From: Minisyncoccota bacterium
GTDB taxonomy: Bacteria > Patescibacteriota > Minisyncoccia > Phycocordibacterales > XYD1-FULL-46-19
Assembly (NCBI GenBank): GCA_041665625.1
Contig: JBAYIK010000001.1
Location: forward strand, 2,091-66,090
Length of the DNA stretch: 64,000 nucleotides
Direction: 5' to 3'
The translations under genes and the position numbers were made by a program. Positions 3,904-30,672 of this stretch are shown here, piece by piece (the stretch's first letter is position 1; every line of letters begins with the position of its first letter). The notes below the pieces were generated by a model. The model was not told the origin of the DNA. It was given only the letters and a program-made list of their open reading frames with translations, and searched no databases.

Positions 3904-4212
3904 ATGGTGGGATATAATTTTGGGGATTTTATTGAAGAGGTTAAAGACCTTGATCTTCCTGAGATCAGAAGGATTGCTGACCAAAAATGCCAACAGCTTG
4001 AGAATCTTTCTTGGGGAATAAAAGGGGCGGTAGAAAGAAGGGCACAAGGGAGCGCTGCTCTTGTGGAGAAGGTGAAAGGGTTGCTTTTTTGGCTTAATAC
4101 CGGGATCAAGCCCGCAGGGTTAACTGATGATGAATTTATTCTGTTAGAGAAAGTTTGTATAAAACTTATCGAGAAAGGACAGATGTCACCGGAGGCCTTA
4201 GGGGCCTTTTAA
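3904..4212 (+). CDS. Hypothetical protein.
   Basis: 102-aa ORF. Confidence 0.4.
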   Translation: MVGYNFGDFIEEVKDLDLPEIRRIADQKCQQLENLSWGIKGAVERRAQGSAALVEKVKGLLFWLNTGIKPAGLTDDEFILLEKVCIKLIEKGQMSPEALGAF

Positions 4213-4216
4213 ACTT

Positions 4217-4245
4217 TTGTAAAAAATTGCCCAAAATGGTAAACT
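4217..4245 (+). promoter_or_regulatory. Sigma70-type promoter TTGTAA-N17-TAAACT (extended TGg). It is part of a 42-bp block (4215-4256) repeated almost identically at 6394-6435.
   Basis: 'ttttgtaaaaaattgcccaaaatggtaaactcttgtcaagtat' here versus 'ttttgtaaaaaattgccaaaggtggtaaactcttgtcaagtgt' at 6394. Confidence 0.55.
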
Positions 4246-4271
4246 CTTGTCAAGTATCAAGAAAAGATAAA

Positions 4272-4682
4272 GCCATGTCTGATTTTTCGGAGCCAACTCA
4301 ACGAACCTCTAAATTAAGGGACTTGCAACAAAGTATTGCTGGTTCGGTTTTCCCTTTGGGCGCGACAGCTTTAATTGGCAAGGCAGAATTAAACAAAAAA
4401 TTACTTAGTGAGTACATGAGCCTTTGTTTGGAAGACCCCAATGTGGCAAAAGTGGCGAACGAAGAAGAACTTTTGGAAACCTGCGATCTTCTTCAAATGT
4501 CTGGTGCCGGGCAATGGGTTAAAGGCAGTTATGTATCTCTTCAGGTATTGAGTGACCCGCAGTTATTAGACTATTTCTTAAAAGCGACAAGAGCGGGCAA
4601 GTCTCTGATTGGGGTAGTCTTTAATTTAACAGAATACTTTGAAAAAGGATTATCTTACATCCCTAAGGAGTGGTTCGATTAA
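4272..4682 (+). CDS. Hypothetical protein; start taken at MSDFSEP, downstream of the repeated promoter block.
   Basis: The listed ORF 4155..4682 overlaps the promoter block; the internal Met follows the promoter. Confidence 0.45.
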   Translation, partial: AMSDFSEPTQRTSKLRDLQQSIAGSVFPLGATALIGKAELNKKLLSEYMSLCLEDPNVAKVANEEELLETCDLLQMSGAGQWVKGSYVSLQVLSDPQLLDYFLKATRAGKSLIGVVFNLTEYFEKGLSYIPKEWFD

Positions 4683-4726
4683 TTATAATTATTCCCGACC
4701 GAAAGGTTTGATATCTACGATACTTT

Positions 4727-5443
4727 ATGGCTGGCAAAAAACAAAAACAAGTTAGTGATCCTAGCCTCGCCCATCCTCATGAGGCCGGGTCCGAAGTTTG
4801 GCTGACTCAACCGGCAGTCCATCCTATTTATGGGACCATAATGTTTCCGATTCTTGACCACACTGATTTTTACTTCAAGGCGGCAGGATCTTGTCTTCAA
4901 GACGCAAAAAGGTATCATAACGAGATTTTATCTAAACCACTAAATAAATCTAACTGTCGGCTTGTTACTGACAACCAACTCCTGGGCAATTTCTTTCTTA
5001 ACGCTCAAAATGTTGTTCTATTTTCTTATTTGGCCCTAGAGTACTTTGCTTTGTCTTGTGCGGGGTCGTTTGGTAAACAGCGTCAATGGAAAGATCGACG
5101 ATTAGACCAGAAGATAAAACATTTAATTTCCCAAGAACTTGGAATCCCTAGGCTTCCCCAAGATCTGTGTTCTGCTTTTGGTGACATTGAGAATCGAAGA
5201 CATGCCTTAAATCATCCCCGCCCCGAAAGTGTTGCGAATGCTGATCCTCGAGAATGGGACTCGGTACATCTTGCCTGGCTACTTATAGGTAATTACGAAA
5301 AAACCTACTCAGACTCACTAAAAATTTATGAATACTTATCTGTTCCATACAAAGAACAGATGATGAGAAAATCTGGGCCAGTCACCTTAACTGGTGTTAA
5401 GCGTGGTATAAGGTTCGAAAATCAAGCTAAAAAGAATTTTTAA
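4727..5443 (+). CDS. Hypothetical protein.
   Basis: 238-aa ORF. Confidence 0.45.
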   Translation: MAGKKQKQVSDPSLAHPHEAGSEVWLTQPAVHPIYGTIMFPILDHTDFYFKAAGSCLQDAKRYHNEILSKPLNKSNCRLVTDNQLLGNFFLNAQNVVLFSYLALEYFALSCAGSFGKQRQWKDRRLDQKIKHLISQELGIPRLPQDLCSAFGDIENRRHALNHPRPESVANADPREWDSVHLAWLLIGNYEKTYSDSLKIYEYLSVPYKEQMMRKSGPVTLTGVKRGIRFENQAKKNF

Positions 5444-5456
5444 AGCTTAAAATTTT

Positions 5457-5855
5457 ATGGATGACTTAACCACAAAAACTGACGAGGAGCTACTGGCAAT
5501 TATTCGTCGTTGTGAAAATTCTAACGTCCCAGGTATCTTATATCAAAGAGCTTCGCAAGAACTGTCTTTAAGAGACAGAGATAAAATAATTAATAGGCCT
5601 AATAATTCTGGCTTGTTTTTGCGGGTTGGCGGGGACATGTTATTTGACGGGACAATTCAGGGTCCACAAGATGGGCCAATAGATATTGCCGTGGCCGGTA
5701 ATTATAAAAGCAAAAGTGGCAAAATTATTCAAGGGGGAAATGATCAAGAACCAATAAAAAGATGGTGGGAGAACAATTGGTTTCAAATAATTGCCTTAAT
5801 CGGAGCGATTGTCACTATTGTTTCTTTTGTCATATGGGTCAAGGGGCTTATTTAA
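5457..5855 (+). CDS. Hypothetical protein with a C-terminal transmembrane helix.
   Basis: C-terminal hydrophobic segment FQIIALIGAIVTIVSFVIWV. Confidence 0.45.
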   Translation: MDDLTTKTDEELLAIIRRCENSNVPGILYQRASQELSLRDRDKIINRPNNSGLFLRVGGDMLFDGTIQGPQDGPIDIAVAGNYKSKSGKIIQGGNDQEPIKRWWENNWFQIIALIGAIVTIVSFVIWVKGLI

Positions 5856-5892
5856 AAGAAGAAGTTAAAAAATTAATAACAAAAAAATATCC

Positions 5893-6387
5893 ATGTCTGG
5901 AATAATCATCCTAATCTTGTTGTTTGTGATCGCCGTGGCCGTTGTTAGGTTAATCAGGAAAAACTTTGGGACAAGAAACGACCAGCTCGTCTCAGTTTAT
6001 GAGAAAAAACCATACCTCTTTGATACAAACTCAGAGTTTAACCTATATAAGGTTTTACTTGAGCTGTTCGGGGACCAATATTTTATCTTCCCGCAGGTTA
6101 ATTATGGCCACTTGATACGACCAAAGAAAATTAGCTGGGCGAAAGAAAGAAATCTGCGAAGCCGAATCGACCGCAAGTCAGCAGACTTTGTCCTTTGTGA
6201 CCGGGAGCAGATTGTCCCTCGTCTGGTTATTGAGCTAGATGGCAGTGCTCATGATTTAAAGAAGAAAAAAGAGAGAGACGAGTTTATTAATGAGATAACA
6301 GAATCGATTGGCCTTCCGTTACTTCGTCTTAAGGTAGGGGACGTCGATAAGGAATCCATTCGGGGAAAGATCTCTAAGAAGCTCTAG
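5893..6387 (+). CDS. DUF2726-family protein: N-terminal TM helix plus a restriction-endonuclease-like fold domain.
   Basis: N-terminal TM. Motifs 'FNLYKVLLELFGDQYFIFPQV', 'SADFVLCD', 'LVIELDGSAHD' and 'IGLPLLRL' are typical of PF10881. Confidence 0.65.
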   Translation: MSGIIILILLFVIAVAVVRLIRKNFGTRNDQLVSVYEKKPYLFDTNSEFNLYKVLLELFGDQYFIFPQVNYGHLIRPKKISWAKERNLRSRIDRKSADFVLCDREQIVPRLVIELDGSAHDLKKKKERDEFINEITESIGLPLLRLKVGDVDKESIRGKISKKL

Positions 6388-6395
6388 GCCATATT

Positions 6396-6424
6396 TTGTA
6401 AAAAATTGCCAAAGGTGGTAAACT
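6396..6424 (+). promoter_or_regulatory. Second copy of the TTGTAA-N17-TAAACT promoter block.
   Basis: Near-identical to 4215-4256 (about 40 of 42 nt). Confidence 0.55.
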
Positions 6425-6496
6425 CTTGTCAAGTGTAGAGTTATTTTGTCGTGATAGTCACACGACAACATTTTTAGAAATAATTGATTTATTATT

Positions 6497-7201
6497 ATGT
6501 CTAACGATACTCAAGTTGTTAAGGAGGGGGCTAAAAATATCGCCTTTGGTTTAGGGCTTAGTTGGGTCGTTTCCGTTCTTTTTATTATCAGCGGGATTTC
6601 TGCCCTTTTTTCTAGTTTTCTTGTGGGAATTCTCATTCTCCTAATTGGCTTGATTTTTTTTCCTCCAGCGAATAAATTTATTAAGACCAAATGGAATTTG
6701 TCACTAACCAGAGGAGTGAAAATTACGACGGTTATCATTCTTTTAATTTTGGTCGGTATCTCTTGGAATCCTGCGACGCAGGAGACAACGAGTTCTGAAC
6801 AAACTAAAACACAACCATCTGCAGCTGCCAACCATACCATTGTCACCGCTACCACGACATCTGTAGTCGCTTCACAAAAAGACACCAAGAATATCTTACC
6901 TTTATCAAACGAAACAGTTAGCCAAAAGAATGCGGCTAAAAAGGCAAAGTCTTATTTAAATTACACAGCGTTCTCTTACGGTGGACTGGTCGCTCAGTTG
7001 GAGTATGATCAATTTTCACACGCTGATGCTGTCTACGGCGCAGATAATTCTGGTGCTAACTGGAATGAGCAAGCCGCTAAAAAGGCTAAATCATACATGG
7101 GTTATTCCGCCTTCTCCCGCGGTGGTTTGATCACGCAGTTAGAGTTTGACAAATTCACACAATCACAGGCAGAGTATGGAGCCAATGCCGCTGGCCTATA
7201 G
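6497..7201 (+). CDS. Membrane-anchored protein with two tandem Ltp-like (host cell surface-exposed lipoprotein, PF07553-like) domains, i.e. superinfection-exclusion-like.
   Basis: Two TM helices. Tandem repeats 'AAKKAKSYLNYTAFSYGGLVAQLEYDQFSHADAVYGADNSG' and 'AAKKAKSYMGYSAFSRGGLITQLEFDKFTQSQAEYGANAAG'. Confidence 0.6.
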   Translation: MSNDTQVVKEGAKNIAFGLGLSWVVSVLFIISGISALFSSFLVGILILLIGLIFFPPANKFIKTKWNLSLTRGVKITTVIILLILVGISWNPATQETTSSEQTKTQPSAAANHTIVTATTTSVVASQKDTKNILPLSNETVSQKNAAKKAKSYLNYTAFSYGGLVAQLEYDQFSHADAVYGADNSGANWNEQAAKKAKSYMGYSAFSRGGLITQLEFDKFTQSQAEYGANAAGL

Positions 7202-7220
7202 CAGTACAAAATAAAACACT

Positions 7221-7700
7221 GTGGGAAGTTTTTCATCAATCATAAATAAATTTATGGGCAATAGTTATTGGAGAGACAATAAATTAATTCAAGCTATTAA
7301 GGAAGAAAAGGATGAACATTTAAATTATGAAATTGAGATGTTCCGCGAGACCTGTAAACAACTTAACTTCCCTCAGCAGCGATTTGAAATGAACCTGTTG
7401 CTAGAATCGCTATCGGCCCATACCAGAACATTGATAGAGTTTTTTTATGACGATAAAGATGAGAAATATCCGAACGATTTAGTGGCTCAAGATCTTTTAC
7501 CCAATACAATAAACTGGAAAACTGAAAGGCCACAGATAACAGAGTTGCTTAAAGAGGCAAGAAATAAAGCCGATAAACAAGTTGCCCATTTGAGCCTTTG
7601 GAGGATAAAGATTGAACGAGATAACAAAAAGGCCTGGAACTGGAATGATGTCAGTAAAGACATGGAAAAAGTAGTAAAGAAATTTGAAGATTTAAGATAA
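7221..7700 (+). CDS. Hypothetical protein.
   Basis: 159-aa ORF. Confidence 0.45.
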   Translation: MGSFSSIINKFMGNSYWRDNKLIQAIKEEKDEHLNYEIEMFRETCKQLNFPQQRFEMNLLLESLSAHTRTLIEFFYDDKDEKYPNDLVAQDLLPNTINWKTERPQITELLKEARNKADKQVAHLSLWRIKIERDNKKAWNWNDVSKDMEKVVKKFEDLR

Positions 7701-7731
7701 TCAGGCCTAGGACTTATGGTACAATTATTAG

Positions 7732-8322
7732 ATGGAGAGACCTTTAGTCGAAGAAAGTTACCATTTATCAACTTCAGCTCTAAAACACTCCCTAGCCCGC
7801 TGTGGGAGCTCAAACGGGGCCATAATTGATGATCAACTCATCTTAACTACCGAGCACAAACAACTCACGGTTAATTATTGGCTGGAGAACGAAGCTCGAA
7901 GTTTGGCCATTAATCTTTGCGTGCCAGGTAATGAGCCCCAAAGGGTCGAGCTGATTCCTTTTGAGCTATCTTTTGGGACCAGATACTTCTTTGAGTGCCC
8001 CATTTGTTTCCGCCAAGTGAGTAAACTCTATTTGCCACCAGATCAGCAAGACTTTAAGTGTCGTCTCTGCCACCGCTTAGTCTATGAGCTCACGACCATC
8101 AACAAGAACTCAACCTTTGGCCAACAGCTTTACCGCAACGCTTGCTTTCTTCGCTTTATGAATGCTCCAGACCGTGCCATTAGAGTCTTTTATGGTCCTA
8201 ATTACACCAAGAACTATCTTCGTCGGATGAGATTTTACCGTAAGCTGGGTCTTGAAGAGCCCGGGGTTGAAAAAGTTAAAGAGAATCTTGCTTTAATTAG
8301 GAGACAAGAGGTTCATCATTAA
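7732..8322 (+). CDS. Hypothetical protein with a CxxC...CxxC zinc ribbon.
   Basis: FECPICFRQV...KCRLCHRL. Confidence 0.45.
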   Translation: MERPLVEESYHLSTSALKHSLARCGSSNGAIIDDQLILTTEHKQLTVNYWLENEARSLAINLCVPGNEPQRVELIPFELSFGTRYFFECPICFRQVSKLYLPPDQQDFKCRLCHRLVYELTTINKNSTFGQQLYRNACFLRFMNAPDRAIRVFYGPNYTKNYLRRMRFYRKLGLEEPGVEKVKENLALIRRQEVHH

Positions 8323-8556
8323 TTTTAGATATTCTCAATCGATTTAGTTTTGCTACCTCTTTCATATTACGGAGATCTCCGTTTTAGGTTGGGAAGCCAC
8401 GGCCGGGCGTGAGCGGAAAAAATAAATTAAAGTGAATATTTTTTTGCCCTTGAAATTACCCAGAATCTATGTTTTAGTCTAAGAGGAACCTGCTATTTGT
8501 CAGCATGTTTCTGTTAATTAAGACTTCAATCAACACCCTTACAGGAGGCTCGATAA

Positions 8557-10347
8557 ATGTTCAAGACGTACGGAGAAGGCTCAAAAGGCCGGAAGGTTGA
8601 GGATTTGGAGCAATACGCTGAACTGCTCGCCTCCCTGGGAATGAAGATTCCTGGCGGGTTGGTGATTCTGAGTGGCGTGTTTCTTCAGGTTCTGGAGGCA
8701 CTGGGCCTTAACGAGGAGAGTTTCCCCTCGCACTTGGAAACGCAAACGGACTGTCCGGACTACCTGGCGGTGTTTAACCAGGAGATCTTGGACGACATGA
8801 CAATCGGCAGACCCTATGCCATCCGCTCTTCGGCTTTATCGGAGCGTGGCGGTACGGGTATCTACCACTCAACGTTCTTTGTTCCCCGTGGTGATCGCGA
8901 CCGTGATTTGCAATTGCTGTGGGAGAAAGAGCGTGACGTCTATGCCAGTGAACTCTCGGGGAATGCCCGAGCCTGGCGCGAGAAGAGCAAGGCACCGTTC
9001 GGAATGGCCATCTTTGTCCAACCCGTGTCCGGTTCCGAAGTTGATGGCTGTTGGCTTCCGTCCTTGTCTGGGGTTGCCTATACCTCATATCAAGGTCTGC
9101 CGACCGTTCGTCTGGTTGTCGGTCTTGGTACCCAAGCGGTCTCTGGTTGTGGCATTGTCGGCCACGAAAGTCCGGGCTTGGGCCAAGATGACTTCTTGCA
9201 CTTTCAGCGTGCCGTCTGGGATCTCGATGAGGCCGACATGATTGAACTCGGGACCGGGGATCTTGGTCAGATGAGAAGCCACTCGGAAATTATCCATGGC
9301 CAAATCGCCGAAGGCTACGAGGCTTTCTGTGGCTTGTTCGAGAAATTGTGGGAACTCAAGGATCACGGCGACTTCAGCTTGGAGTGGGCTCTGTCGGGGC
9401 CAGATTTGGACATCGTCCAGTGTGCGCCCTACGAGGACAAATTGCCTGGTGACATGTCCATCGACAAAAGCCGTTATTTCCTGTTCGTCAACGGGACCGA
9501 CGTCTTCAACTCTGGACGGAATGTCTGCCGAGCGGTGGTCTATGTCTACCATTGGTCGCCAATCGTGGCCAGTCGTCTTGAGAACCTCAACCGCCAACTG
9601 GCGGGGACCAACTATCTACTGATCGTTCCGCAGAAGGCGACCTCTCTATTGGCCAGCCTTGAGCGAGACGAGAAGACCCGGGAGGTTGGGAAACGGCTTG
9701 AATTCCGTCATTTCAGCAATGCCGGAGTCGTCATAGAGAAGCAACAACACCTGAGTGAGGACCAGAAAGAGGCCATGCGTCTCATGCGGATGAACACGGC
9801 GGACCATTCTGGCGGAGTGGGAGCCTCGCACTTCCAACAGCTCTGTTCGCGGAGTGACATTCTCTTTGTCGGAGCAACCTTTGATCCTTACTCGCTCTTC
9901 AATCTGCCCGGAGAAATGAGGTATGGCGATCCTGTAGACATCTCTGTCTGGTCGACTGAAGCAGTGGGCTTGGTTGATGGTGAGAAGAAGGAAGGCTATG
10001 TCTACCTGAGCAAAGAAGGCAAGTCGACTCGCTATCAGCCGGAACAGGTTCAAGAGTATTCAATGGCGATGAGGCAAGCGGCTCTCAATCTTGAAAGCTC
10101 AGGCCAAAAGAAACTGGTCAGCGCTCTCTACTCTGTCCACTACGCCATTGGTTCTGATGAGGGGCCGGTCCAGTTCGATCCGTTCAGTCTGGATGAAGAA
10201 ATTGTCGGAGAGCGTGGTCTCGACGGTCTCCGCCAGGATGTGCAAGTGGTGATTTCGGGCGTCGGCTCTGTCTCGAGATATGTCCCCGATATTTGGCGGA
10301 GCGAATTCCGTCAGTATCTGGAAGACTTGCGGGCCCATCTCAGTTAG
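8557..10347 (+). CDS. PEP-utilising-enzyme N-terminal (PPDK_N / ATP-grasp-like nucleotide-binding) domain protein. No phospho-His swivel domain is recognisable. GC-rich.
   Basis: 'YAIRSSALSERGGTGIYHSTFFV' matches the PPDK_N 'VRSSAtaED...SFAG' motif seen in authentic ppsA at 56141. GC about 58%; good RBS (aggagg). Confidence 0.55.
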   Translation: MFKTYGEGSKGRKVEDLEQYAELLASLGMKIPGGLVILSGVFLQVLEALGLNEESFPSHLETQTDCPDYLAVFNQEILDDMTIGRPYAIRSSALSERGGTGIYHSTFFVPRGDRDRDLQLLWEKERDVYASELSGNARAWREKSKAPFGMAIFVQPVSGSEVDGCWLPSLSGVAYTSYQGLPTVRLVVGLGTQAVSGCGIVGHESPGLGQDDFLHFQRAVWDLDEADMIELGTGDLGQMRSHSEIIHGQIAEGYEAFCGLFEKLWELKDHGDFSLEWALSGPDLDIVQCAPYEDKLPGDMSIDKSRYFLFVNGTDVFNSGRNVCRAVVYVYHWSPIVASRLENLNRQLAGTNYLLIVPQKATSLLASLERDEKTREVGKRLEFRHFSNAGVVIEKQQHLSEDQKEAMRLMRMNTADHSGGVGASHFQQLCSRSDILFVGATFDPYSLFNLPGEMRYGDPVDISVWSTEAVGLVDGEKKEGYVYLSKEGKSTRYQPEQVQEYSMAMRQAALNLESSGQKKLVSALYSVHYAIGSDEGPVQFDPFSLDEEIVGERGLDGLRQDVQVVISGVGSVSRYVPDIWRSEFRQYLEDLRAHLS

Positions 10348-10367
10348 CAGAAACAAGCTCGTGTGAA

Positions 10368-10407
10368 CATGCCCGTCAGACTTCGGTTTGGCGGGCATTA
10401 GTGTTTT
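10368..10407 (+). terminator. Rho-independent terminator.
   Basis: Stem ATGCCCG...CGGGCAT followed by TAGTGTTTT. Confidence 0.5.
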
Positions 10408-10777
10408 AATTATAAGATCAAATTTAGTGTTACCAGTTTATCGTCTTTATCGTCCTATCGTCGAGAGCAGACGATACTGACGGTAGAGACGATGTTTCGG
10501 GAGGATTAAGTGTTTGGTGGCTTGTCTTCCTTCAGATCGGGGATGATTACTGTGCTTACAAAAGTGCCATAATACCATTGCCACTTTTTAATATATTTTT
10601 CTAAGGTGTTCCAAGTAAATTCTTTCTTGTGCACAGGAGCAAGCAAGCGGCTTTGCTTACTTAGTATATTTGTGTTAGAACTAGCTCGGAAGCTTAGATG
10701 TTATTTGTCATGGAAAGTAGGAAAAAACAACTCAGAACAAAGACCTCATTGAGGCAAAAAGAGGAGAGACCTGTCTT

Positions 10778-12043
10778 ATGATGCCCCAAGCATTTCAGGA
10801 GCGACTCTTTCCCTGTTTGGAGGAAGTTGCTCGACACTACAAAACGCCTTTCCACGTCTATGATGAGGACGGAATCAGGCAAACCTGCCGAGAGATGAAA
10901 GGGTTACTCGGCCAAGTCTCGAAGTATCGCAATTTCTTTGCAGTCAAAGCTCTGCCCAACCCGGCAATCATGAAGATTGTTCTGGACGAAGGTTTCGGCT
11001 TTGATTGCTCGAGCGTTCCCGAATTGACGTTGGCCCGCAATGCCGGCGCCAAGCCGGACGAGATAATGTTCACCTCGAACAATACCTCATCACTTGAATA
11101 CAGTTGGGCCATGATGAATGGTGGCTGTATCCTCAATCTCGATGACTTGTCGTTCGTCCCCAAGGTCCCGAAGATGCCAGAGCTCATCTGCTTTCGGTAT
11201 AATCCTGGACCTCTGAGGGGCGGCAACGAGATTATCGGCGAGCCCGAAGAGGCCAAATACGGTGTGCGCGACGATCAGATTGTCGAGGCTTACCGCCAGG
11301 CCCGCGAACGTGGCGCTCGAAGGTTCGGCCTTCACACTATGATATGTTCCAACCAGCGTGACTACACATATATGTTGGTCACGGTTGGGATGATTCTGGG
11401 TGTGGCCAAGAGGTTGAAGGACGAGCTCGGTATCGAAGTCGAATTCGTGAACATTGGGGGAGGCTTCGGCATCCCCTACAAACCGACCGACGAGACCTTC
11501 AACCTGCAGGCTTTTGCCGAAGAGGCGAAGCTTGTCTTCGACGAGTTCGAGCAAGACAATGGCTGGCGTCCCGAACTATTCACTGAATGTGGCCGTTATG
11601 TTACGGGCCCGCACGGGGTGCTTGTCACTTCGGTGATCAACCGAATGGACAAGTATCTCCAGTTTGTGGGGGTAGACGCCTGTATGTCGGCGCTCATGCG
11701 TCCGGCGTTGTACGATGCCTATCACCACATCTACGTGCCTGGCCACGAAGATCGCCCTCTCGAGACCGTCAATGTCGTTGGCTCGCTTTGCGAGAACAAC
11801 GACCAGTTTGCCAAACAGCGGACCTTGCCGGTAACACGCGAGGGCGACTTGCTCGTCATCGCCAACACTGGTGCTCACGGTTTGGCCATGGGTTTCAACT
11901 ACAACGGACGCAAACGGACGAAGGAACTGTTGCGTCGGACAGATGAGACATTCGAACTTATTCGTCGCGAAGAAAGGGACGAAGACCTCTTCGCGACCTT
12001 AAGCTTCGGTTACAACAACACGTTCAAACCGACCCGAGCCTAG
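10778..12043 (+). CDS. PLP-dependent decarboxylase of the Orn/DAP/Arg decarboxylase family 2 (fold III), diaminopimelate- or carboxynorspermidine-decarboxylase-like.
   Basis: PLP-Lys motif 'FFAVKALPN', 'GGGFGIPY', and active-site 'GSLCENNDQF' (CES.D-type). GC-rich. Confidence 0.75.
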   Translation: MMPQAFQERLFPCLEEVARHYKTPFHVYDEDGIRQTCREMKGLLGQVSKYRNFFAVKALPNPAIMKIVLDEGFGFDCSSVPELTLARNAGAKPDEIMFTSNNTSSLEYSWAMMNGGCILNLDDLSFVPKVPKMPELICFRYNPGPLRGGNEIIGEPEEAKYGVRDDQIVEAYRQARERGARRFGLHTMICSNQRDYTYMLVTVGMILGVAKRLKDELGIEVEFVNIGGGFGIPYKPTDETFNLQAFAEEAKLVFDEFEQDNGWRPELFTECGRYVTGPHGVLVTSVINRMDKYLQFVGVDACMSALMRPALYDAYHHIYVPGHEDRPLETVNVVGSLCENNDQFAKQRTLPVTREGDLLVIANTGAHGLAMGFNYNGRKRTKELLRRTDETFELIRREERDEDLFATLSFGYNNTFKPTRA

Positions 12044-12071
12044 CTCGGAAGTTGTAAGAAAGGAAAAGGTT

Positions 12072-13271
12072 ATGCAATTCGAATCGTGGCTACCCAAAGG
12101 AGGAGCCAATCTCTTCCAGACCATTAAGAAAGTCTGCCAAGAGGCAGAGGCCGGTGGGCAGAAACTGTACCGTCTGTCCATCGGCCAGCCCCCTGGTCCG
12201 GCACTGGAGTCGGCACGTAATTATTGTGCCAATTCCGTTCTGATGACCGAAGACTGTTGGCACGAGTATCAGGACAACACGTTCCTGCCATACCCCGATT
12301 GGGCGATGCGTTTCTGCCAGGCCCACACGCCTCGCGTCAACTTGAAGGGTTATGGTGCCGAGCTCGACTACCTACCCATCCCGGGCATCAAGCCGATGCT
12401 GGGTCTGGTGATGTTGGCCTGTGGCGCCGAGCAGAAGCGTCAAGACCTTCATGTGATGAGCATGACCGCTCCGGGCTATCCTGTCCCCAGAGATTGGGCC
12501 GGCTATCTCGGCGTGACCCACGGATCCTTCAGTCTCAATCCGAAGAATGCCTTCCTTCCCGATCTGGAAGACGAGGAGAGTATCTTCCGGATTGACCTCG
12601 CGATGATGAACCTGCCCCACAATCCGTCGGGGCAGATCGCCACTTACGAATTTTGGCGGGAAGTTTGCGAATTCTGCTCCAAGAAGGGGATTCGTCTCGT
12701 CAATGATGGTGCTTACCTGGCACTGTCCCACGACAAGCGCAGCCGGGCCTTGGCCGAAGTGGCCGTGGATTTCCCGGGACTGGAGTGGATCGAACTCTTC
12801 TCGGCGTCCAAATCAATCGCGAACGGGACGGGCTGGCGCATTGGAGGCATGGTCGGCTCGCCCGATTTTGTCAACGACATCAAGAAGATAAAAGGGAACA
12901 CCGACTCCGGCTTCTTTGCCCCCGCGGCCGCCGGTGCCTTGTTTGCCCTTGAGAACGATCAGGCGGGTGTCGCTGGAGTTGGTCGCTTGTACGAAGAGCG
13001 GCTCAAACTTCTTGTCCCGATCTTGAAGGAACGGGGACTTCGTTTGGCGGTTGACCCCGGTGCCGGTTTCTTCTCCCTTTGGGAGTCGCCCAAGTACGCC
13101 TTCGGCCGGGAAATGAAGAATGCCGAAGACTTCAACCTCAGTCTGATTCGGGAAACCGGTATCGTCGGTGTGCATTTCGACCCGTATATCCGCTTTGCGG
13201 TGTGCGGGCCGATAGAGAACTGGATCGTCCCGATCACACAGGCCTTTGAGAAGGCCAACGTTTCCTACTGA
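12072..13271 (+). CDS. Class I/II PLP aminotransferase, LL-diaminopimelate aminotransferase (DapL)-like.
   Basis: 'NLPHNPSG' and 'SASKSIANGTGWRIGGMVG' (SxSKxxxxxGxRxG) hallmarks. GC-rich. Confidence 0.7.
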   Translation: MQFESWLPKGGANLFQTIKKVCQEAEAGGQKLYRLSIGQPPGPALESARNYCANSVLMTEDCWHEYQDNTFLPYPDWAMRFCQAHTPRVNLKGYGAELDYLPIPGIKPMLGLVMLACGAEQKRQDLHVMSMTAPGYPVPRDWAGYLGVTHGSFSLNPKNAFLPDLEDEESIFRIDLAMMNLPHNPSGQIATYEFWREVCEFCSKKGIRLVNDGAYLALSHDKRSRALAEVAVDFPGLEWIELFSASKSIANGTGWRIGGMVGSPDFVNDIKKIKGNTDSGFFAPAAAGALFALENDQAGVAGVGRLYEERLKLLVPILKERGLRLAVDPGAGFFSLWESPKYAFGREMKNAEDFNLSLIRETGIVGVHFDPYIRFAVCGPIENWIVPITQAFEKANVSY

Positions 13272-13309
13272 CCTTGAAATGAAGCGGTGAACCATCACCA
13301 TGACCGAAA

Positions 13310-13349
13310 CCCTGGAGCAGCGCTCCAGGGTTTTACTTTTTTATTTTTC
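13310..13349 (+). terminator. Strong rho-independent terminator closing the GC-rich operon.
   Basis: Perfect stem CCCTGGAGC-agc-GCTCCAGGG followed by TTTTACTTTTTTATTTTT. Confidence 0.8.
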
Positions 13350-13422
13350 AAAATATTTTAAAAGAGGGGTTGTCCACAGTTTTTCTTTCTCTTATTTTTT
13401 ATAAGGAATATAATAAGAAGCA

Positions 13423-15624
13423 ATGAGTGAAGATTTCTCAAAAGGACTTTTGTCCGATGACGCCGAACAAAAATTAAAAGATGCAATTGCCGCTGCCGGC
13501 TTGTCTCCTTCAGGGACACCTGGCGTTGTTGAAACTCCAAGCACTCCAGTTGTTGAGTCTATTAAACCTGAATCTGGTGAAGGTGGTGAAACACATGAGG
13601 ATCCGATGGGCGGAACTCGTTTTGATGAATTCAAAGATCCATTTTCTGAACTTGGACTTAAAGATGATGGTCCTTTAATGATGACTGAACCAGAGGCTCC
13701 AACTAAAGCCCCGGTTGAAGTTGTTCCATCTCCCGCTGGTCCAGAACAAGATATCCAGAATAAAAGAGCAAGAATCGATGAAATAAACAAAGCTGTCAAA
13801 AATGGCACGGCCAGTAGCTTTTATGGGTTCAGTCCTAATTGGGAAGAGATGGCTAACTTTGAAGTTACAAAGTTGGAGAATGAAATTCGTGAATTAGAAA
13901 AAGGAGAGACAGCTCCGACGGAAGCGCCTGTTGAGAAAACCCCAGAACCCTGGGTTGATATTTCCGAGCCTGAACCACCAACTCAATACGAAGACTTGCC
14001 AGATGCTTCGTCAAAAGCGCCAGAGGTTAATACCCCAGCAACTGAACCGTGGGTTGATATTTCTGAGCCTGAGCCACCTGTTCACTATGAAGACATTCCT
14101 GATACTCCACCAAAGGCTCCCGAAGTTGTTCAACCTGTGCCAGAGGGTCCCATTGATTATTCCAAACAAGCTCAGGCTGCTCGTGATCGCTTGAAAGCTG
14201 CTGGCTATCTTGACGCCGATACTGCTTGGAAAAATAAACCGATAGAGGGTATTAGTAAATTAGCTGAAACAGAAAAAAGGCTTAAAGAGACAAGAGAATT
14301 TCGAGAGCAGATTGCTAAGCTTGAAGAACAGTTGAGGCAAATGAGAGAGAGACTGGAGAGAGAAGAAATAACTCCAGAAACTCCAGTTGAAGTTCCTCCA
14401 GCACCTCCGGTAACACCAGAAGTTCCGCCAACTGAACGACCAATTGGCCCGTCTGCTGTGAATGCTGCCCTTGAAGAATATCGCTTAGAAAATTTGGCTG
14501 AACTCAATCGACTAAGAGCTAAAAGAGAAGGCCGAGAAGCGGCTTCCGGAGCAAGCCTTTGGGAGCGGGCTAAGGATAAAGGCCCTCGAGTTTATAGCTG
14601 GCTTAAAGAAAGAGCCAAAGGTTTAGCGACTTTTGGTTATTGGGAAGTACGTCAAGCGGAGAAAGTCAGAAAGGCGGGGACTGAAGTGGTTGATGTCATG
14701 GAAGCCGGTACCGGAGCAATCAGGCAAGAAGCTTTTACTGATGAAGACCGAGAATTAATCAAGAGGCGCTTGCGTGAGTCCGGCAACGATGTTGAGAATA
14801 TGTCTGATGAACAACTTCAGATTACTTACGACTGGCTTGAGGGGTCTATTGTGGGAGAAAAGAAAGAAGCCAATCAACAAATTGAAGACCGCTTAGTTGA
14901 AGAGTCCATTAAGAAAATTGAAGATCGCCTAAGAGGAAGAATGGGCACCGGTGGTTACCGTACTTTTGGTGGTGAGGCCGTCTTAGAGAATGGTTATCTA
15001 CCTGAAGCTAAAGCAGAAGAGATTAGAGCTAAATTGCGTGGTGCAATTGGCGCTTTAAGAACATCCCAAATTGATCGTGATATCATTAACTATGGCAAGT
15101 TGGTCCGTGGGAGCATTGATCCTAAATGGTATAAGCGTTATGTTGCTGGTGGTGTTGAGGCCGCCCTTGGTTTTGCCTTGGTTAATTGGGTGGTGATGCC
15201 CGCTGTTACTGGTTGGGCTAAAGCTAAATTTGCCGCTGGTGCTGTTAAAGAAGGGGTTAAACAAGTTGTTGCTAGTCCTGATAATATTCTTAGCCTCCCT
15301 ACTGATGTAGGTATTCCGCCAGATGCAGCGAGTGAGCTGGTGGGGATGACGCCTGGACCTGAAGAAGTGATGGCCCCGCTCAAAGATAATCTTTGGAGTA
15401 TGGGTAAGGGAATTTTGCAGCAACAAGGCATTGCCGATCCAACCAATGGCCAGATTATGGAGGTGACCAAGCAATTAGCTCTTGATAACCAGACTTCTGT
15501 TGCTAAGTGGGGCCTAAGTGCGAGCAAGTGGATTGACTCTATGATGCCTAGCGGTTTACCAATTCATATTGGTGGAGCTTTGCGTGTGGCTAGTGTTGCG
15601 GCTAGAGTGGCCGGTGTTATGTAA
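13423..15624 (+). CDS. Large Pro/Glu-rich repeat protein with a coiled-coil middle and a hydrophobic C-terminal region. Hypothetical structural or surface protein.
   Basis: Tandem 33-aa repeat 'EPWVDISEPEPPxxYEDxPD...KAPEV' (nt ~13941-14130). Heptad-rich region around 14250-14900. Confidence 0.55.
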   Translation: MSEDFSKGLLSDDAEQKLKDAIAAAGLSPSGTPGVVETPSTPVVESIKPESGEGGETHEDPMGGTRFDEFKDPFSELGLKDDGPLMMTEPEAPTKAPVEVVPSPAGPEQDIQNKRARIDEINKAVKNGTASSFYGFSPNWEEMANFEVTKLENEIRELEKGETAPTEAPVEKTPEPWVDISEPEPPTQYEDLPDASSKAPEVNTPATEPWVDISEPEPPVHYEDIPDTPPKAPEVVQPVPEGPIDYSKQAQAARDRLKAAGYLDADTAWKNKPIEGISKLAETEKRLKETREFREQIAKLEEQLRQMRERLEREEITPETPVEVPPAPPVTPEVPPTERPIGPSAVNAALEEYRLENLAELNRLRAKREGREAASGASLWERAKDKGPRVYSWLKERAKGLATFGYWEVRQAEKVRKAGTEVVDVMEAGTGAIRQEAFTDEDRELIKRRLRESGNDVENMSDEQLQITYDWLEGSIVGEKKEANQQIEDRLVEESIKKIEDRLRGRMGTGGYRTFGGEAVLENGYLPEAKAEEIRAKLRGAIGALRTSQIDRDIINYGKLVRGSIDPKWYKRYVAGGVEAALGFALVNWVVMPAVTGWAKAKFAAGAVKEGVKQVVASPDNILSLPTDVGIPPDAASELVGMTPGPEEVMAPLKDNLWSMGKGILQQQGIADPTNGQIMEVTKQLALDNQTSVAKWGLSASKWIDSMMPSGLPIHIGGALRVASVAARVAGVM

Positions 15625-15664
15625 ATTAAGTGTTCGATAAATTCAAAAAATAAAAAAATATATT

Positions 15665-16003
15665 ATGGATGATCAAGTTATAACTAAGGCCAAACATTTA
15701 GGCCAACTCTTAGCTAAGAGCCCTCTTGATATTGAACTTAAGATCACGATTTTAGAAAATTTGTCTAAGATGCCTGAGAAATATCTTGACGCTCTAATTG
15801 TTTCTCTTGAGAACGAGGCGAAGGGGATTGAGATTTTATTGAAGGAAGCTGATGTTTTTCTCAAGACTCAAGATGACGACTGGGCAAAAGTTGAGGCTGA
15901 CCAGACCGCTTTGGCTGACAAAATGACCGAAGAAATCATTGGTGAAGTTGTTAAAGAAGACCAAATAAACGCGGTTAAAGCCAATATTGTGAGTAGCCTC
16001 TAG
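15665..16003 (+). CDS. Small conserved hypothetical protein; paralog of 29469..29657.
   Basis: 'KAKHLGQLLAKSPLDIELKITILENLSKMPEKYLDALIVSLENEAKGIEILL' here versus 'KAQRLGQLLANSTTLDLDQKMRILGLLKGMTEGQIDSLIIYLDEGIGDLELIL' in the paralog. Confidence 0.6.
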   Translation: MDDQVITKAKHLGQLLAKSPLDIELKITILENLSKMPEKYLDALIVSLENEAKGIEILLKEADVFLKTQDDDWAKVEADQTALADKMTEEIIGEVVKEDQINAVKANIVSSL

Positions 16004-16035
16004 TTTTTTGACCATATTCCAATAAAGAACACCAC

Positions 16036-16065
16036 CTTGACAAATTGTCAAGTATGGTATATAAT
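16036..16065 (+). promoter_or_regulatory. Canonical sigma70 promoter (TTGACA-N17-TATAAT) whose -35 lies inside a perfect 17-bp palindrome CTTGACAAaTTGTCAAG.
   Basis: Palindrome at 16036-16052; -35 at 16037-16042; TGg-TATAAT at 16060-16065. Confidence 0.6.
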
Positions 16066-16151
16066 AGATGTAGATAGTACAAGCAGGCATTGTGGCCTGT
16101 TTTTGCTTAATATTTTTGTTGTTTTGACAGAGGAATAAAGGAAGGAAAGAA

Positions 16152-16433
16152 ATGAAGAAAAACGCTCTGATTACCGCCTTGGTGGTCTTGTTGCTCGTGG
16201 CTGGGATGATTATTCTCCAGCTCTGGCCCAAGACCTCTTCGGTGGAAAAGACGTCCGCCCCGGTGGTGACGAAAGTTGCCGCCCCTGCTCCCGAGCCGCC
16301 GGCACTTGTGCCTGCGTCTCTACCTGTCTCGACCCCGGCGCCTGTCGCGCCGATGTCGAAGGTTGACGAGAAGTTGTCAAAACTGCACTTCGGATTGTCT
16401 TCTGATGTGCAGCCGATAAATGTCGTAAAGTAA
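16152..16433 (+). CDS. Small TM / Pro-Ala-rich secreted protein, GC-rich.
   Basis: N-terminal TM 'ALITALVVLLLVAGMIIL' followed by a PAPEPPALVP-rich region. Confidence 0.5.
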   Translation: MKKNALITALVVLLLVAGMIILQLWPKTSSVEKTSAPVVTKVAAPAPEPPALVPASLPVSTPAPVAPMSKVDEKLSKLHFGLSSDVQPINVVK

Positions 16434-16435
16434 AC

Positions 16436-17509
16436 GTGAAGGAGAAGATCATGAAGAAGGCAACGTTGATTTGGGTTCTGGCGGCCATGATGTCCATCTC
16501 GGCCTGGGCTGGTGGGTATACCGACGCCGAGCGCGTCGCCGATGCGTTCGCTTCGGTGGATGTCAACCAGTATGAGGGGCAGTTCGGGTTTACCCGTTTG
16601 CTTCCCAACGGTACGTCCAGCGATGTCCGGGGAGACTTTTCCCTCGACGCCAACGGCAAGATACCTCGCCTCGTCATTGATGGGGTGTCGGTGGTCAACT
16701 GGGGCGACGAACCCCTTGGCGGCTTGCCCGTCAACAAACTCGGCAGTGCCACCAACTACTGGCTCAGGCTGGATGGTTGGGATGGCAAAGCCGGAAGGTT
16801 CGCCATCTACGGTTGGTTCAGTACCGTTCTGCTTGAGCCCAAAGACCGAATCACCGTTGAACTGAACCTTGCGTACGTCGAAGCGTTTGTGGCTTTCGAT
16901 GCCGCCGACTATGACTCTTCGCGTCTTGTGCTTCGCTACAGTAATGGAGAGTCCGGTTATGACACTTCGCGGGGAGGTTTCGTCCTATGGATTGACCCCG
17001 CCGCGAGCGATGTTTCGTATGACATTGTCGATACAGGCATTAGCCAAGTCGTTGCCAGTGGTACGCTCCAGTCGGGTGTTGCCGAGGACAATGTCATCAA
17101 CAAGTTTATGCCGGCCGGAGTGCGAGAATTGTTCCCGGTGGGCCAAGACTTTGTGTCCTTACATGACCAGTGGTTTGGCTCGTCCATTCTGCGGAACGAG
17201 GCGTGGGTCCCTGCTCAGATCTATATCGCTCGCGCCTACGGCAGTGCCCTGACCCTTGAACCGAGTGGTACGGCTGTTGGTCGAGTCGAAGTTTATGCAG
17301 TCGACGATGACCGCAACCGCACGCTCGTTTCCGAGTTGGACATCCCTGTCCCCGTCTCGGTTGGCAAGGGTGGTGGTGTCGAAACCCGTCCGATCCTCAA
17401 TGTTCCCGCCGGGTACGAGAACCTGGTCATTGAGTTGATCGGGGCCCCGGATAACTGGGGAAGCTTCGGCATCGTGGCCTACAAGGCCCAACAGGGTGGC
17501 CGCGGTTAA
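16436..17509 (+). CDS. Secreted hypothetical protein, GC-rich.
   Basis: Signal peptide MKKATLIWVLAAMMSISAWA. Translationally coupled to the previous gene. Confidence 0.55.
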   Translation: MKEKIMKKATLIWVLAAMMSISAWAGGYTDAERVADAFASVDVNQYEGQFGFTRLLPNGTSSDVRGDFSLDANGKIPRLVIDGVSVVNWGDEPLGGLPVNKLGSATNYWLRLDGWDGKAGRFAIYGWFSTVLLEPKDRITVELNLAYVEAFVAFDAADYDSSRLVLRYSNGESGYDTSRGGFVLWIDPAASDVSYDIVDTGISQVVASGTLQSGVAEDNVINKFMPAGVRELFPVGQDFVSLHDQWFGSSILRNEAWVPAQIYIARAYGSALTLEPSGTAVGRVEVYAVDDDRNRTLVSELDIPVPVSVGKGGGVETRPILNVPAGYENLVIELIGAPDNWGSFGIVAYKAQQGGRG

Positions 17510-17547
17510 TACCTGGCCCTTCCTTTCAACCTCTAACCTGTAACCCC

Positions 17548-19688: not shown

Positions 19689-19698
19689 ACTTAAAAAT

Positions 19699-30667: not shown

Positions 30668-30672
30668 CCTAT

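Follow-up and report, generated by a model that had tools for sequence, protein, structure and literature searches.

The window analysed here, a stretch of DNA of 64 kb, is interrupted by a GC-rich patch with three co-oriented ORFs (within 8557-13271), and the question is whether these genes make up a single imported operon or have a more complex history. We favour, with a probability of roughly 60%, a composite region in which a relocatable lysA-aminotransferase unit that recurs in CPR, with a DapL-type/LysA role, lies beside an unrelated insertion of the gene called g1 here. The features of the region are the following:

8370-8381, no strand: palindrome CGGAGATCTCCG, 12 bp; stem 8369-8382 followed by TTTT, a 5-pair terminator-like site
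8557-10347, + strand: g1, 596 aa
10369-10398, + strand: g1 terminator-like hairpin of 13 pairs with a T-rich tail, 21 nt past the g1 stop
10623-10777, + strand: lysA leader/promoter region, conserved; collinear with L091 from 10623 and with L028 from 10665
10778-12043, + strand: lysA, 421 aa
12072-13271, + strand: aminotransferase gene, 399 aa
13306-13334, + strand: lysA-aminotransferase terminator, GC-rich stem of 13 pairs and then a T-run

The GC contents of g1, lysA and the aminotransferase gene are 0.547, 0.540 and 0.573, respectively. Their GC3 values of 0.631, 0.666 and 0.700 correspond to z-scores of +3.7, +4.3 and +4.9 relative to the backbone (mean 0.413, sd 0.059; 43 genes of the window), and the tetranucleotide correlation between island and backbone is 0.24 compared to 0.59-0.94 for most other 2.5-kb windows. 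The abrupt compositional shift described in the initial annotation is thus genuine. Its figure of ~58% GC was too high, since we measured about 54-57%, and the GC-rich region is split between g1 and lysA by a spacer of 430 bp with a GC content of ~40%. Shine–Dalgarno-like sequences are present upstream of all three starts, as the same annotation had noted together with the shared orientation. The three proteins match the Pfam families PPDK_N (weakly, 32.9 bits), Orn/DAP/Arg decarboxylase and Aminotran_1_2. No integrase, no convincing flanking direct repeats and no border tRNA were found in the 64-kb window.

Abrupt GC steps at both ends are also what one would see if a GC-rich fragment of another organism had been joined to a CPR contig during assembly or binning. 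This explanation is so improbable that it can practically be set aside. Positions 2777-20347 are 100% identical to the Logan assembly of SRR6484324, and a JGI contig of another sample (3300037810) matches positions 4914-20347 at 99.97% identity with 5 mismatches, so that both junctions and the internal spacer recur in other assemblies and the patch is not an assembly chimera, a concern already raised by the initial annotation. Moreover, the sister genome L091 has the same right junction at 83-89% nucleotide identity, and the unit includes low-GC leader and terminator sequences.

The left edge had been defined by the palindrome CGGAGATCTCCG. It is located 48 nt past the stop codon of the preceding gene 7732-8322 and has TTTT on its 3′ side, and for this reason reads as a small terminator-like hairpin. 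In addition, perfect 12-bp palindromes are no more frequent in the window than expected by chance (13 observed, this one included, versus 16±3 in shuffles). Most likely it is therefore the terminator-like hairpin of gene 7732-8322, or a chance palindrome, and not an island border.

That the three genes constitute one operon, brought in by one transfer from a donor of actinobacterial type, perhaps the host, for a joint lysine, polyamine or small-molecule product, is suggested by their adjacency, common orientation and similar GC3 (0.63-0.70). We nevertheless consider it very improbable. The hairpin at 10369-10398 closes the g1 transcription unit, and the 430-bp AT-rich spacer that follows contrasts with a gap of only 28 bp between lysA and the aminotransferase gene. 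In L091 (LysA and the aminotransferase being 96% and 92% identical at the amino-acid level), collinearity with the window begins at 10623 and continues past 22441, while to the left of this synteny break the genome contains tRNA-Tyr and ClpB in place of g1. L028 has genes of the left flank in common with the window, as well as the lysA leader, where collinearity starts at 10665, and again g1 is missing. The two closest syntenic relatives thus both lack g1. The same separation is seen more widely: none of the 80 loci that the aminotransferase profile retrieved contains g1, and neither lysA nor the aminotransferase gene occurs in any of the six g1-homologue contexts read, where the neighbours are unrelated. 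Actinobacterial sequences do not appear among the named top matches or locus titles, and the nspC model that would speak for a polyamine route gives 15 bits, its cut-off being 409. The GC hairpin terminator noted earlier at the right edge could be confirmed (13306-13334, 13 pairs and a T-run). An equivalent hairpin is found 3′ of the aminotransferase gene in L091, L008, L009, L011, L028 and L014, and the stem differences between the window and L091 are compensatory. No Rfam family, including the lysine riboswitch, was found in the leader 10623-10777.

In our composite reading, the unit 8557-10398 is a lone-gene insertion that has a ribosome-binding site and a terminator to itself and is unrelated to the lysA-aminotransferase unit. 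All named members of the g1 family are Patescibacteria. The product appears to be a PpsA/PPDK/rifampin-phosphotransferase-like protein with an N-terminal ATP-grasp nucleotide-binding domain and a presumed helical C-terminal domain of about 100 residues (~495-596), and its domain order is closer to PpsA than to RPH. The PPDK_N assignment of the initial annotation, although weak, was upheld. Its statement that a His swivel domain is missing probably does not hold, as an invariant H425 points to a phospho-His swivel domain, even though the Pfam PEP-utilizers model gave no match. The protein differs from the PEP synthase/PPDK/RPH family in having no PEP/pyruvate TIM barrel, no detected rifampin-binding domain and a helical C-terminus. 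It would have the build of a PEP synthase or rifampin phosphotransferase minus the PEP/pyruvate barrel, and might transfer a phosphate from ATP via phospho-His425 to an acceptor. A complete PpsA is also encoded in the window (56141-58573).

The second gene had been described as LysA/NspC-like. Judged by its sequence it is a diaminopimelate decarboxylase, a fold-type III PLP enzyme: both Orn_Arg_deC_N and Orn_DAP_Arg_deC of Pfam match, the best solved-structure matches are DAP decarboxylases, and PGAP names the product diaminopimelate decarboxylase (MFA6475795.1). The LysA half of the description stands, with 286.1 bits on TIGR01048, 12 short of the 297.9 equivalog cut-off, while NspC can be dropped (15 bits on TIGR01047). 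The enzyme shares with TIGR01048 LysA of the Desulfobacterota/Desulfuromonadales type both Pfam domains, the PLP-lysine AVKA and the GGG, E.GR and CENND motifs, and is 59-64% identical to LysA-annotated proteins of Desulfobacterota, with catalytic motifs in common. It is set apart by falling just under the cut-off and by its position in a CPR clade, not nested inside Desulfobacterota, in the neighbour-joining tree.

The aminotransferase is a class-I (fold-type I) PLP enzyme (Pfam Aminotran_1_2) belonging to a distinct widespread orthologous group. The invariant catalytic residues N184, D212, Y215, K247, R256 and R374 are present; the predicted model has a pLDDT of 91.2, and a fold search with it returns generic class-I aminotransferases. 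The sequence suggests that it is probably an enzyme of the DAP pathway, as its designation as DapL-like implied: models of LL-DAP aminotransferases take the first five places among the NCBIfam matches (E 2e-45 to 1e-27), and the best non-DAP model follows at 2e-24. The designation is less secure when judged by score, since the protein does not come near any of the curated DapL cut-offs (155 versus 585 bits; 125 versus 593). It is only 18-19% identical to solved DapL, which is no nearer to it than aspartate, prephenate or BacF aminotransferases are. It is accordingly possible, though in our opinion unlikely, that we are dealing with a general glutamate-linked aminotransferase (aspartate, alanine, aromatic or lysine α-) that does not act on diaminopimelate and is co-transcribed with lysA for amino-group or lysine handling, e.g., conversion of lysine or another amino acid and 2-oxoglutarate to a keto acid and glutamate. 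Besides the low DapL scores, this would agree with the nearest structures being generic enzymes or ones with another specificity (2x5d, BacF, the TM1255 AspAT and prephenate aminotransferase), with a purely generic PGAP name and with the wide occurrence of the same orthologous group in Dehalococcoidia and Proteobacteria, where the loci retrieved contain no DAP-gene neighbours. It fits less well with the ranking of the curated models, with the tight coupling to lysA in 21 loci, four of which have dapA/dapB or a dapB-like gene adjoining, and with a family-invariant acidic HEYQDN segment that might be compatible with binding of a second amino group.

The coupling of the two genes is indeed widespread. 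lysA occupies position -1 of the aminotransferase gene in 21 loci, 16 of them named Patescibacteria, and the two are adjacent in 16 of the 19 Patescibacteria-named species loci retrieved; no such adjacency was seen in the Dehalococcoidia or Proteobacteria loci retrieved. The pair is therefore not unusual for CPR, contrary to what had been supposed. It is found, among others, in L008, L009, L010 and L091 and in the metagenome loci L097 and L099-L102, and neighbour-joining trees (midpoint-rooted, without support values) place both proteins in the same CPR clade. None of dapA, dapB and dapF could be detected in the 64 kb of the window, which agrees with their reported absence. In L054 and L075, however, the pair lies head-to-head with dapA-dapB, next to murJ, and L028 and L039 have a dapB-like gene beside it. 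These four of the 21 loci support a diaminopimelate/lysine role. dapF was not found next to any cassette, and the route to lysine may therefore lack steps.

Where did the pair come from? The closest homologues of g1, LysA and the aminotransferase are all from CPR/Patescibacteria, and the nearest non-CPR proteins are from Desulfobacterota for LysA (59-64%) and from Dehalococcoidia for the aminotransferase (about 54-55%). An actinobacterial or host donor thus finds no counterpart in the data. Likewise, since the closest homologues of the lysA-aminotransferase pair lie in CPR with conserved synteny, a single acquisition fails for this pair. Plain vertical inheritance is not established either, because these CPR homologues likewise have a higher GC content than the genomes carrying them. 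In 26 of 27 cassettes GC3 lies above that of the backbone (median difference +0.09, largest +0.36), and the excess correlates with the GC3 of the backbone (Spearman 0.59). It is plausible that the pair is laterally mobile in some form. Foreign composition together with different chromosomal sites in related genomes makes the cassette behave as relocatable: L008 is syntenic with the window at 37.6-46.3 kb and 53.7-58.6 kb and has the pair where the window has none, and in L028 the cassette is flanked by a serine recombinase and a PIN toxin.

On the other hand, the pair could be an old vertical CPR operon whose high GC3 is kept up by a force acting on these genes in particular, be it codon selection, mRNA structure or biased repair, and whose positions changed by ordinary rearrangement. 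This we regard as rather unlikely, even if several observations agree with it. Many classes of Patescibacteria have the pair, its GC3 nearly always exceeds that of the backbone and correlates with it in the size of the excess, the window is devoid of mobility genes and direct repeats, and neither 185,579 species representatives nor JGI metagenomes yielded a GC-rich genome with a closely similar cassette. Furthermore, the cassette has diverged from its counterparts in L091, L028 and L008 about as far as the neighbouring housekeeping genes. LysA is 74% identical between window and L008 compared to 65%, 76% and 78% for the ClpB-like protein, PpsA and a DNA polymerase III subunit, and 79% between window and L028 versus 74% for a flank gene, as would be expected if the pair had long been inherited vertically and its GC bias maintained. 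However, GC-ending codons are not visibly preferred in the window, the GC3 of the housekeeping genes BipA, SerRS, TopA, ClpB-like and PpsA being 0.39-0.43, and about a third of the cassettes are fully ameliorated, which argues against a universal GC constraint. The different cassette sites in related genomes, the serine recombinase alongside in L028 and the interleaving of CPR and non-CPR clades in both trees are also difficult to reconcile with vertical descent. The cassette is probably a relocatable, laterally exchanged unit.

According to our model, the region ~10623-13334 is a self-contained two-gene transcription unit consisting of the conserved leader, lysA, the 28-bp gap, the aminotransferase gene and the terminator. 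The aminotransferase, if of DapL type, would catalyse tetrahydrodipicolinate + glutamate ⇌ LL-diaminopimelate + 2-oxoglutarate, and LysA would decarboxylate meso-diaminopimelate to L-lysine, the two together representing the late part of the aminotransferase-variant lysine/DAP pathway. In a genome without the upstream enzymes the pair might rather act as a salvage device which converts diaminopimelate scavenged from host or environmental peptidoglycan to lysine, with amino groups shuttled to glutamate. Salvage appears as plausible as de novo synthesis, because the carriers are reduced CPR genomes. A precedent for DAP-to-lysine salvage by LysA without the remaining pathway may be seen in anaerobic ciliates feeding on bacterial cell walls, where a stand-alone lysA is among the laterally acquired genes together with genes for peptidoglycan and amino-sugar degradation (PMC13198582). 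This is an analogy only, since the hosts are eukaryotes and a paired aminotransferase is not reported (PMC13198582).

With a classical genomic island the region has in common its atypical composition, sharp borders and a different site in a related genome, as well as a border tRNA gene in L091 and a border serine recombinase in L028. It differs in that the window contains no integrase, border tRNA or flanking direct repeats, and in that the 'island' consists of two juxtaposed units. The DapL variant of the DAP/lysine pathway operates in Chlamydia, plants, cyanobacteria, Desulfuromonadales, Dehalococcoides and methanogens. Compared to this system, the aminotransferase described here belongs to a separate orthologous group, fails all DapL cut-offs and has ~18-19% identity to solved DapL; usually only lysA and the aminotransferase gene are clustered, dapF is never adjacent, and the carriers are reduced CPR genomes. 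Nevertheless, both share a class-I PLP aminotransferase whose best models are DapL, coupled to lysA and in some CPR also to dapA/dapB.

The initial annotation had described the GC-rich patch as a single operon of three co-oriented genes. Comparison with related genomes resolves it into two adjoining units, a PpsA/rifampin phosphotransferase (RPH)-like gene (g1) and a lysA-aminotransferase (AT) pair or cassette. The latter is a two-gene unit of its own at ~10623-13334, with a separate leader and terminator, and the catalytic residues of both its enzymes are intact.

Genes and hairpins of the GC-rich patch, in window positions; GC3 is GC at third codon positions, and its z-scores are relative to the window's other 43 genes (mean 0.413, sd 0.059).
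8557-10347, co-oriented with g2 and g3: g1, 596 aa; GC 0.547, GC3 0.631, z +3.7
10369-10398: terminator-like hairpin of 13 pairs, 21 nt past the g1 stop
10778-12043, co-oriented with g1 and g3: g2 (lysA), 421 aa; GC 0.540, GC3 0.666, z +4.3
12072-13271, co-oriented with g1 and g2: g3 (AT), 399 aa; GC 0.573, GC3 0.700, z +4.9
13306-13334: terminator-like hairpin of 13 pairs, past g3

The compositional shift itself is real, as judged by GC3 z-scores of +3.7 to +4.9 and by a tetranucleotide profile that correlates with the rest of the window at r = 0.24, where most other 2.5-kb windows give 0.59-0.94. The island is nevertheless broken by a 430-bp spacer of ~40% GC between g1 and g2, while g2 and g3 are only 28 bp apart. 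This gap, the 13-pair terminator past g1, a break in homology at 10623 and the lack of linkage in other genomes all speak against a single operon: g1 is found in none of the 80 loci retrieved with an AT profile (the best 80 of 295), and neither lysA nor AT occurs in any of six g1-homologue contexts, where the neighbours are unrelated and in two cases include serine recombinases or an IS200-type transposase. Nor does the 12-bp palindrome at 8370-8381, formerly taken as the left border of the island, mark a boundary: the window contains 13 palindromes of this kind against a chance expectation of 16±3, and this one, with TTTT behind it, resembles a small terminator of the upstream gene. To the right of the cassette, at a distance of 3 kb, lies a second GC-rich patch, where a 357-aa ORF without a Pfam family (16436-17509) has a GC3 of 0.673 (z +4.4). 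In a sister genome (L091, 14034-15415) its homologue (69% amino acid identity) and an adjacent 102-aa ORF have GC3 values of 0.70 and 0.67.

That sister genome, the closest relative found (JGI 3300034015, a 215-kb contig), encodes a LysA and an AT that are 96% and 92% identical to those of the window. Collinearity with the window begins at 10623 (155 nt before lysA) and extends over the whole right flank as far as 22441 or beyond, with a nucleotide identity of 89% over the pair and 75-83% further to the right. To the left of the breakpoint it carries a ClpB gene and, at ~30 nt, a tRNA-Tyr (8439-8522), and no g1, in the place where the window has g1 and hypothetical genes. A more distant Paceibacterota genome (L028) has homologues of the left-flank genes 851-1354, 1812-2489 and 2498-2797 and a remnant of 7732-8322, and shares the lysA leader from 10665 onward, again with no g1. 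The synteny of these two relatives, the absence of g1 from the AT loci and its unlinked contexts elsewhere indicate that g1, equipped with a ribosome-binding site and terminator of its own, was inserted independently beside the lysA leader. Direct or inverted repeats around g1 that might be insertion scars amounted to short, chance-level matches. The case shows that a compositional island may be made of two units side by side and is not to be taken for an operon. Just upstream, 5893-7201 encodes a DUF2726 protein and one that bears Ltp-type 'host cell surface-exposed lipoprotein' repeats, amid hypothetical genes that the sister genome does not share. Ltp is a phage superinfection-exclusion family; the segment may be a variable one, related to phages or to defence.

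The spacer between g1 and lysA (10348-10777) folds no better than shuffled sequences (z -1.8), and no lysine riboswitch or other RNA element gave a credible Rfam match across 8200-13600. It contains a long imperfect hairpin with a ~23-pair stem and repeated ATCGTC/GACGAT units (10439-10495), to the left of where homology with the two relatives begins. The ~110 nt immediately upstream of lysA are conserved (window 10665-10777, L091 about 8590-8706, L028 8571-8682) and include TTGTCATGGAAAGTAGGAAAAA; this leader is confined to close relatives, has no Rfam match and is probably a promoter or 5′ UTR. The proteins are deposited at NCBI, under a MAG named Candidatus Paceibacterota bacterium (contig of about 293 kb), as MFA6475793.1 (g1, locus tag WCV68_00080), MFA6475795.1 (lysA) and MFA6475796.1 (AT), and the skip between the first two may reflect a small PGAP gene call within or close to the spacer.

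A chimeric assembly can be excluded for practical purposes. Positions 2777-20347 are 100% identical to the Logan assembly of SRR6484324 and 4914-20347 are 99.97% identical to a JGI contig of sample 3300037810, so that the junctions recur in both assemblies, the right one also in the diverged sister genome. The window is cellular, encoding MiaA, ParB, RelA/SpoT, TopA, DprA, SerRS, a ClpB-like ATPase, BipA, Tgt, a complete PpsA and three tRNAs. One of these, the ARAGORN-predicted tRNA-Leu(CAA) at 30586-30669, covers the first codons of the longest ORF for ParB (30592-31650), whose true start must therefore be further downstream. A giant ORF of 2299 aa (22212-29111), preceded by genes for Big_13/cohesin-domain proteins, probably encodes a large surface protein; its counterpart in the sister genome has 2292 aa and a Peptidase_S74 match.

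We take g2, first annotated as LysA/NspC-like, to be a genuine LysA. Both domains of fold-type III PLP decarboxylases (Orn_Arg_deC_N and Orn_DAP_Arg_deC) are recognized above their cut-offs, with 106.5 and 76 bits, and the LysA equivalog model TIGR01048 is missed only narrowly (286.1 bits, cut-off 297.9), the next-best full-length enzyme models scoring far lower. The protein is 59-64% identical to LysA-annotated proteins of Desulfuromonadales and Desulfobacterales, it has the same AVKA, GGG, E.GR and CENND motifs as Desulfobacterota LysA, and its best solved-structure matches are diaminopimelate decarboxylases. Carboxynorspermidine decarboxylase (NspC) was rejected as a candidate on model scores (TIGR01047, 15.1 bits against a cut-off of 409), and with it the suggestion of a carboxynorspermidine-type polyamine pathway.

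The assignment of g3 is less straightforward. An Aminotran_1_2 match places it among the fold-type I, class-I aminotransferases, the catalytic and PLP-binding residues N184, D212, Y215, K247, R256 and R374 are invariant in 36 family sequences, and the structure model (pLDDT 91.2) superposes on class-I aminotransferases with a TM of ~0.8. All five best NCBIfam matches are models of LL-diaminopimelate aminotransferase (DapL), with 97-155 bits against cut-offs of 486-593; g3 falls below those of NF004937, NF006756, TIGR03540 and others (155 against 585, 128.5 against 507 and 124.8 against 593). Solved DapL enzymes are 18-19% identical to g3, no closer by sequence or fold than aspartate, prephenate or BacF aminotransferases. 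A fold search with the model did not discriminate DapL from other specificities, A. thaliana DapL ranking 17th or lower in Foldseek, below 2x5d, 2dou, BacF and AspAT. The low model scores and the distance from solved DapL indicate that g3 belongs to a separate DapL-related orthologous group outside the curated families. The earlier label 'DapL-like' can be kept, the best curated matches being DapL models and the gene context that of DAP/lysine genes.

This context recurs widely. A genome scan with the single AT sequence found nothing, while an alignment-based profile matched 295 species-representative genomes. The 80 best matches, which were examined (47-63% identity), come from many classes of Patescibacteria (CPR), Dehalococcoidia, Alpha- and Gammaproteobacteria, Entotheonella, Planctomycetota and Nitrospinota. 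Among these 80 best matches, lysA lies directly upstream (-1) of AT in 21 loci, in two of them divergently. Of these 21, 16 carry a Patescibacteria name (19 CPR-named loci were retrieved in all), and the other five are small low-GC MAG contigs that bear Gammaproteobacteria labels, as given. In the loci of Dehalococcoidia and other Proteobacteria among the same 80, AT was not adjoined by lysA, and its association with DAP genes is absent in non-CPR lineages. Overall, lysA is the only conserved neighbour of AT. Wherever the surroundings of a close LysA homologue were inspected (L008, L009, L010 and L091), the pairing was there, as it was in metagenome loci, and a GC-rich terminator ends each cassette. 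Complete CPR genomes with the pair include OZ246414.1 (915 kb) and JBAZCA010000001.1. Crude neighbour-joining trees of both genes place the window in a CPR clade with L091, L008, L009, L011, L014 and L028, the Desulfobacterota LysA forming a neighbouring clade and not one that contains g2.

Other genes of the pathway were sought with E. coli dapA, dapB and dapF sequences, used for searching only, and matches were checked with Pfam. With these probes none of the three genes was found within the 64-kb window, which bears out their reported absence there, and no dapF was found near any cassette. Both dapA and dapB were found only in two patescibacterial loci with the arrangement dapB←dapA← / →lysA→AT / ←murJ (L054 5808-12975, L075 6662-13153), and a distant dapB-like gene in two more: after AT in L028, with a GC3 of 0.68, as high as that of AT, and divergent, upstream of the cassette, in a Moranbacteria locus (L039). 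The DapA and DapB of L054 and L075 are 46-49% identical to the E. coli probes, which is unexpectedly high for CPR. Taken together, the genomic context supports a DAP/lysine role for AT.

How the cassette came by its composition is the question on which the evidence divides. In 26 of 27 CPR-type cassettes GC3 exceeds the median of the cassette's own flanking genes, by a median of +0.09 and a maximum of +0.36; in 11 the offset is above +0.15 and eight are essentially equilibrated. In free-living lineages the composition of AT is that of the host genome. The position of the cassette also varies: one relative (L008), syntenic with the window over 37.6-46.3 kb and 53.7-58.6 kb, has the pair at a site matching 51-53.7 kb, where the window has none. 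In L028 (6636-15100) the pair is part of a GC-rich lysA-AT-dapB-like block (GC3 0.63-0.68), with a PIN toxin gene upstream and a gene for a 549-aa large serine recombinase ~1.3 kb downstream, suggesting carriage on or beside an integrative element. From the near-universal GC3 excess and the different sites we favour a relocatable and laterally exchanged cassette.

A serious rival, to which we give about one chance in four, is that the operon is old and its GC bias maintained. No GC-rich genome with a close copy of the cassette was found among the best 80 of 295 GTDB matches and nine JGI metagenome loci, the divergence of the cassette roughly tracks that of neighbouring housekeeping genes, and the window itself lacks mobility signatures, with no integrase, border tRNA or direct repeats; for these three reasons the rival stays serious. 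An old operon accounts less readily for a pair that has a different site in L008 and lies beside a serine recombinase in L028. A laterally exchanged cassette remains our preferred reading. Of the horizontal acquisition proposed initially, the foreign composition stands. The pair lies elsewhere in L008 and g1 is absent from L091 and L028; a donor lineage was not found, and signs of mobility in relatives are limited to the tRNA-Tyr of L091 and the recombinase of L028. Nothing points to the actinobacterial donor then considered plausible, the nearest named relatives being CPR, followed by Desulfobacterota for LysA and Dehalococcoidia for AT. Compared with a horizontally acquired genomic island, the patch has the atypical composition and lacks the mobility signatures at its borders. 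Expression-linked codon bias was rejected as a source of the high GC3: the window's other GC3-rich ORFs lack a Pfam family and are neither ribosomal nor translation genes, a weak test in a window without ribosomal-protein genes. BipA, SerRS, TopA, the ClpB-like protein and PpsA all have ordinary GC3. The systematic GC3 excess of one operon in dozens of low-GC genomes offers a clean test of amelioration after transfer against gene-specific constraint.

The neighbouring g1 has no demonstrable connection to lysine metabolism. A weak PPDK_N match corresponds to the N-terminal ATP-grasp nucleotide-binding domain; searching PDB sequences with g1 yielded no meaningful match, and a structure model built with 32 homologues is confident (pLDDT 91.8). 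PGAP starts the protein 80 codons later (516 aa), and the 596-aa form is backed by full-length homologues. The swivel domain, originally said to be missing, went undetected by Pfam and by hhalign, and a profile of the g1 family aligned weakly with the N-terminus of the window's PpsA and left the swivel region unaligned. However, the family has an invariant His425 in the motif DH(T/S).G.G(A/G)(S/T)HF..LC.R..ILF.G, which loosely resembles the phospho-His motif GG.TSHAA...R of that PpsA with a one-residue offset to the Arg, and makes a phospho-His swivel domain probable. The PEP/pyruvate TIM barrel (PEP-utilizers_C) has no Pfam match in g1, and the modelled C-terminus (about 495-596) is helical. 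We suggest a PpsA/RPH-like dikinase that would pass phosphate from ATP via His425 to some acceptor. The gene at 56141-58573 encodes a complete PEP synthase/PPDK-type enzyme (PPDK_N, PEP-utilizers and PEP-utilizers_C; 76% identical to its homologue in L008, GC3 an ordinary 0.41), so that the genome has a canonical enzyme besides the barrel-less g1.

A model combining these data, to which we assign a probability of roughly 0.25, would see lysA-AT as a minimal lysine module that circulates laterally throughout the Patescibacteria, AT as a third, uncharacterised type of DAP-pathway aminotransferase ('DapL3'), the near-universal GC excess as the result of repeated import from GC-richer non-CPR donors, and g1 as a new CPR-specific phosphohistidine dikinase whose substrate is possibly host-derived or an antibiotic. 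CPR are usually described as host-dependent and without amino-acid biosynthesis. If the model holds, cells this reduced could produce or recover lysine and diaminopimelate without the canonical pathway, for example from host peptidoglycan or a host-derived intermediate. A recurrent cassette, in some cases accompanied by dapA/dapB, would indicate one metabolic capability that many CPR keep or repeatedly regain, one that diaminopimelate and lysine connect directly with peptidoglycan and with the cells' uptake from their hosts, and would supply a candidate family of diverged DAP-pathway aminotransferases unnamed by current curated models. No paper on the pair turned up in our literature search on lysA, DapL and diaminopimelate for CPR, Patescibacteria, Parcubacteria and Saccharibacteria; the CPR-wide cassette with its diverged AT, its systematic GC excess and the architecture of the g1 family appear to be undescribed in the literature searched. 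Established knowledge is not overturned, the enzymes belonging to known superfamilies.

In the pair as we read it, AT would interconvert tetrahydrodipicolinate and LL-DAP with glutamate/2-oxoglutarate, and LysA would convert meso-DAP to lysine. Where tetrahydrodipicolinate supply and LL-DAP epimerisation are lacking, LysA alone could turn scavenged meso-DAP, for instance from host peptidoglycan, into lysine, and AT would then shuttle amino groups. Set against known systems, g1 shares the PPDK_N domain with the PpsA/PPDK/RPH phosphohistidine dikinases and differs by its helical C-terminus in place of a PEP/pyruvate barrel. Likewise, AT shares its fold, PLP residues and best model matches with curated DapL, and differs from it by scores far under the cut-offs. 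The salvage of meso-DAP by LysA proposed here is comparable to the acquisition of a stand-alone lysA listed for bacterivorous ciliates (PMC13198582).
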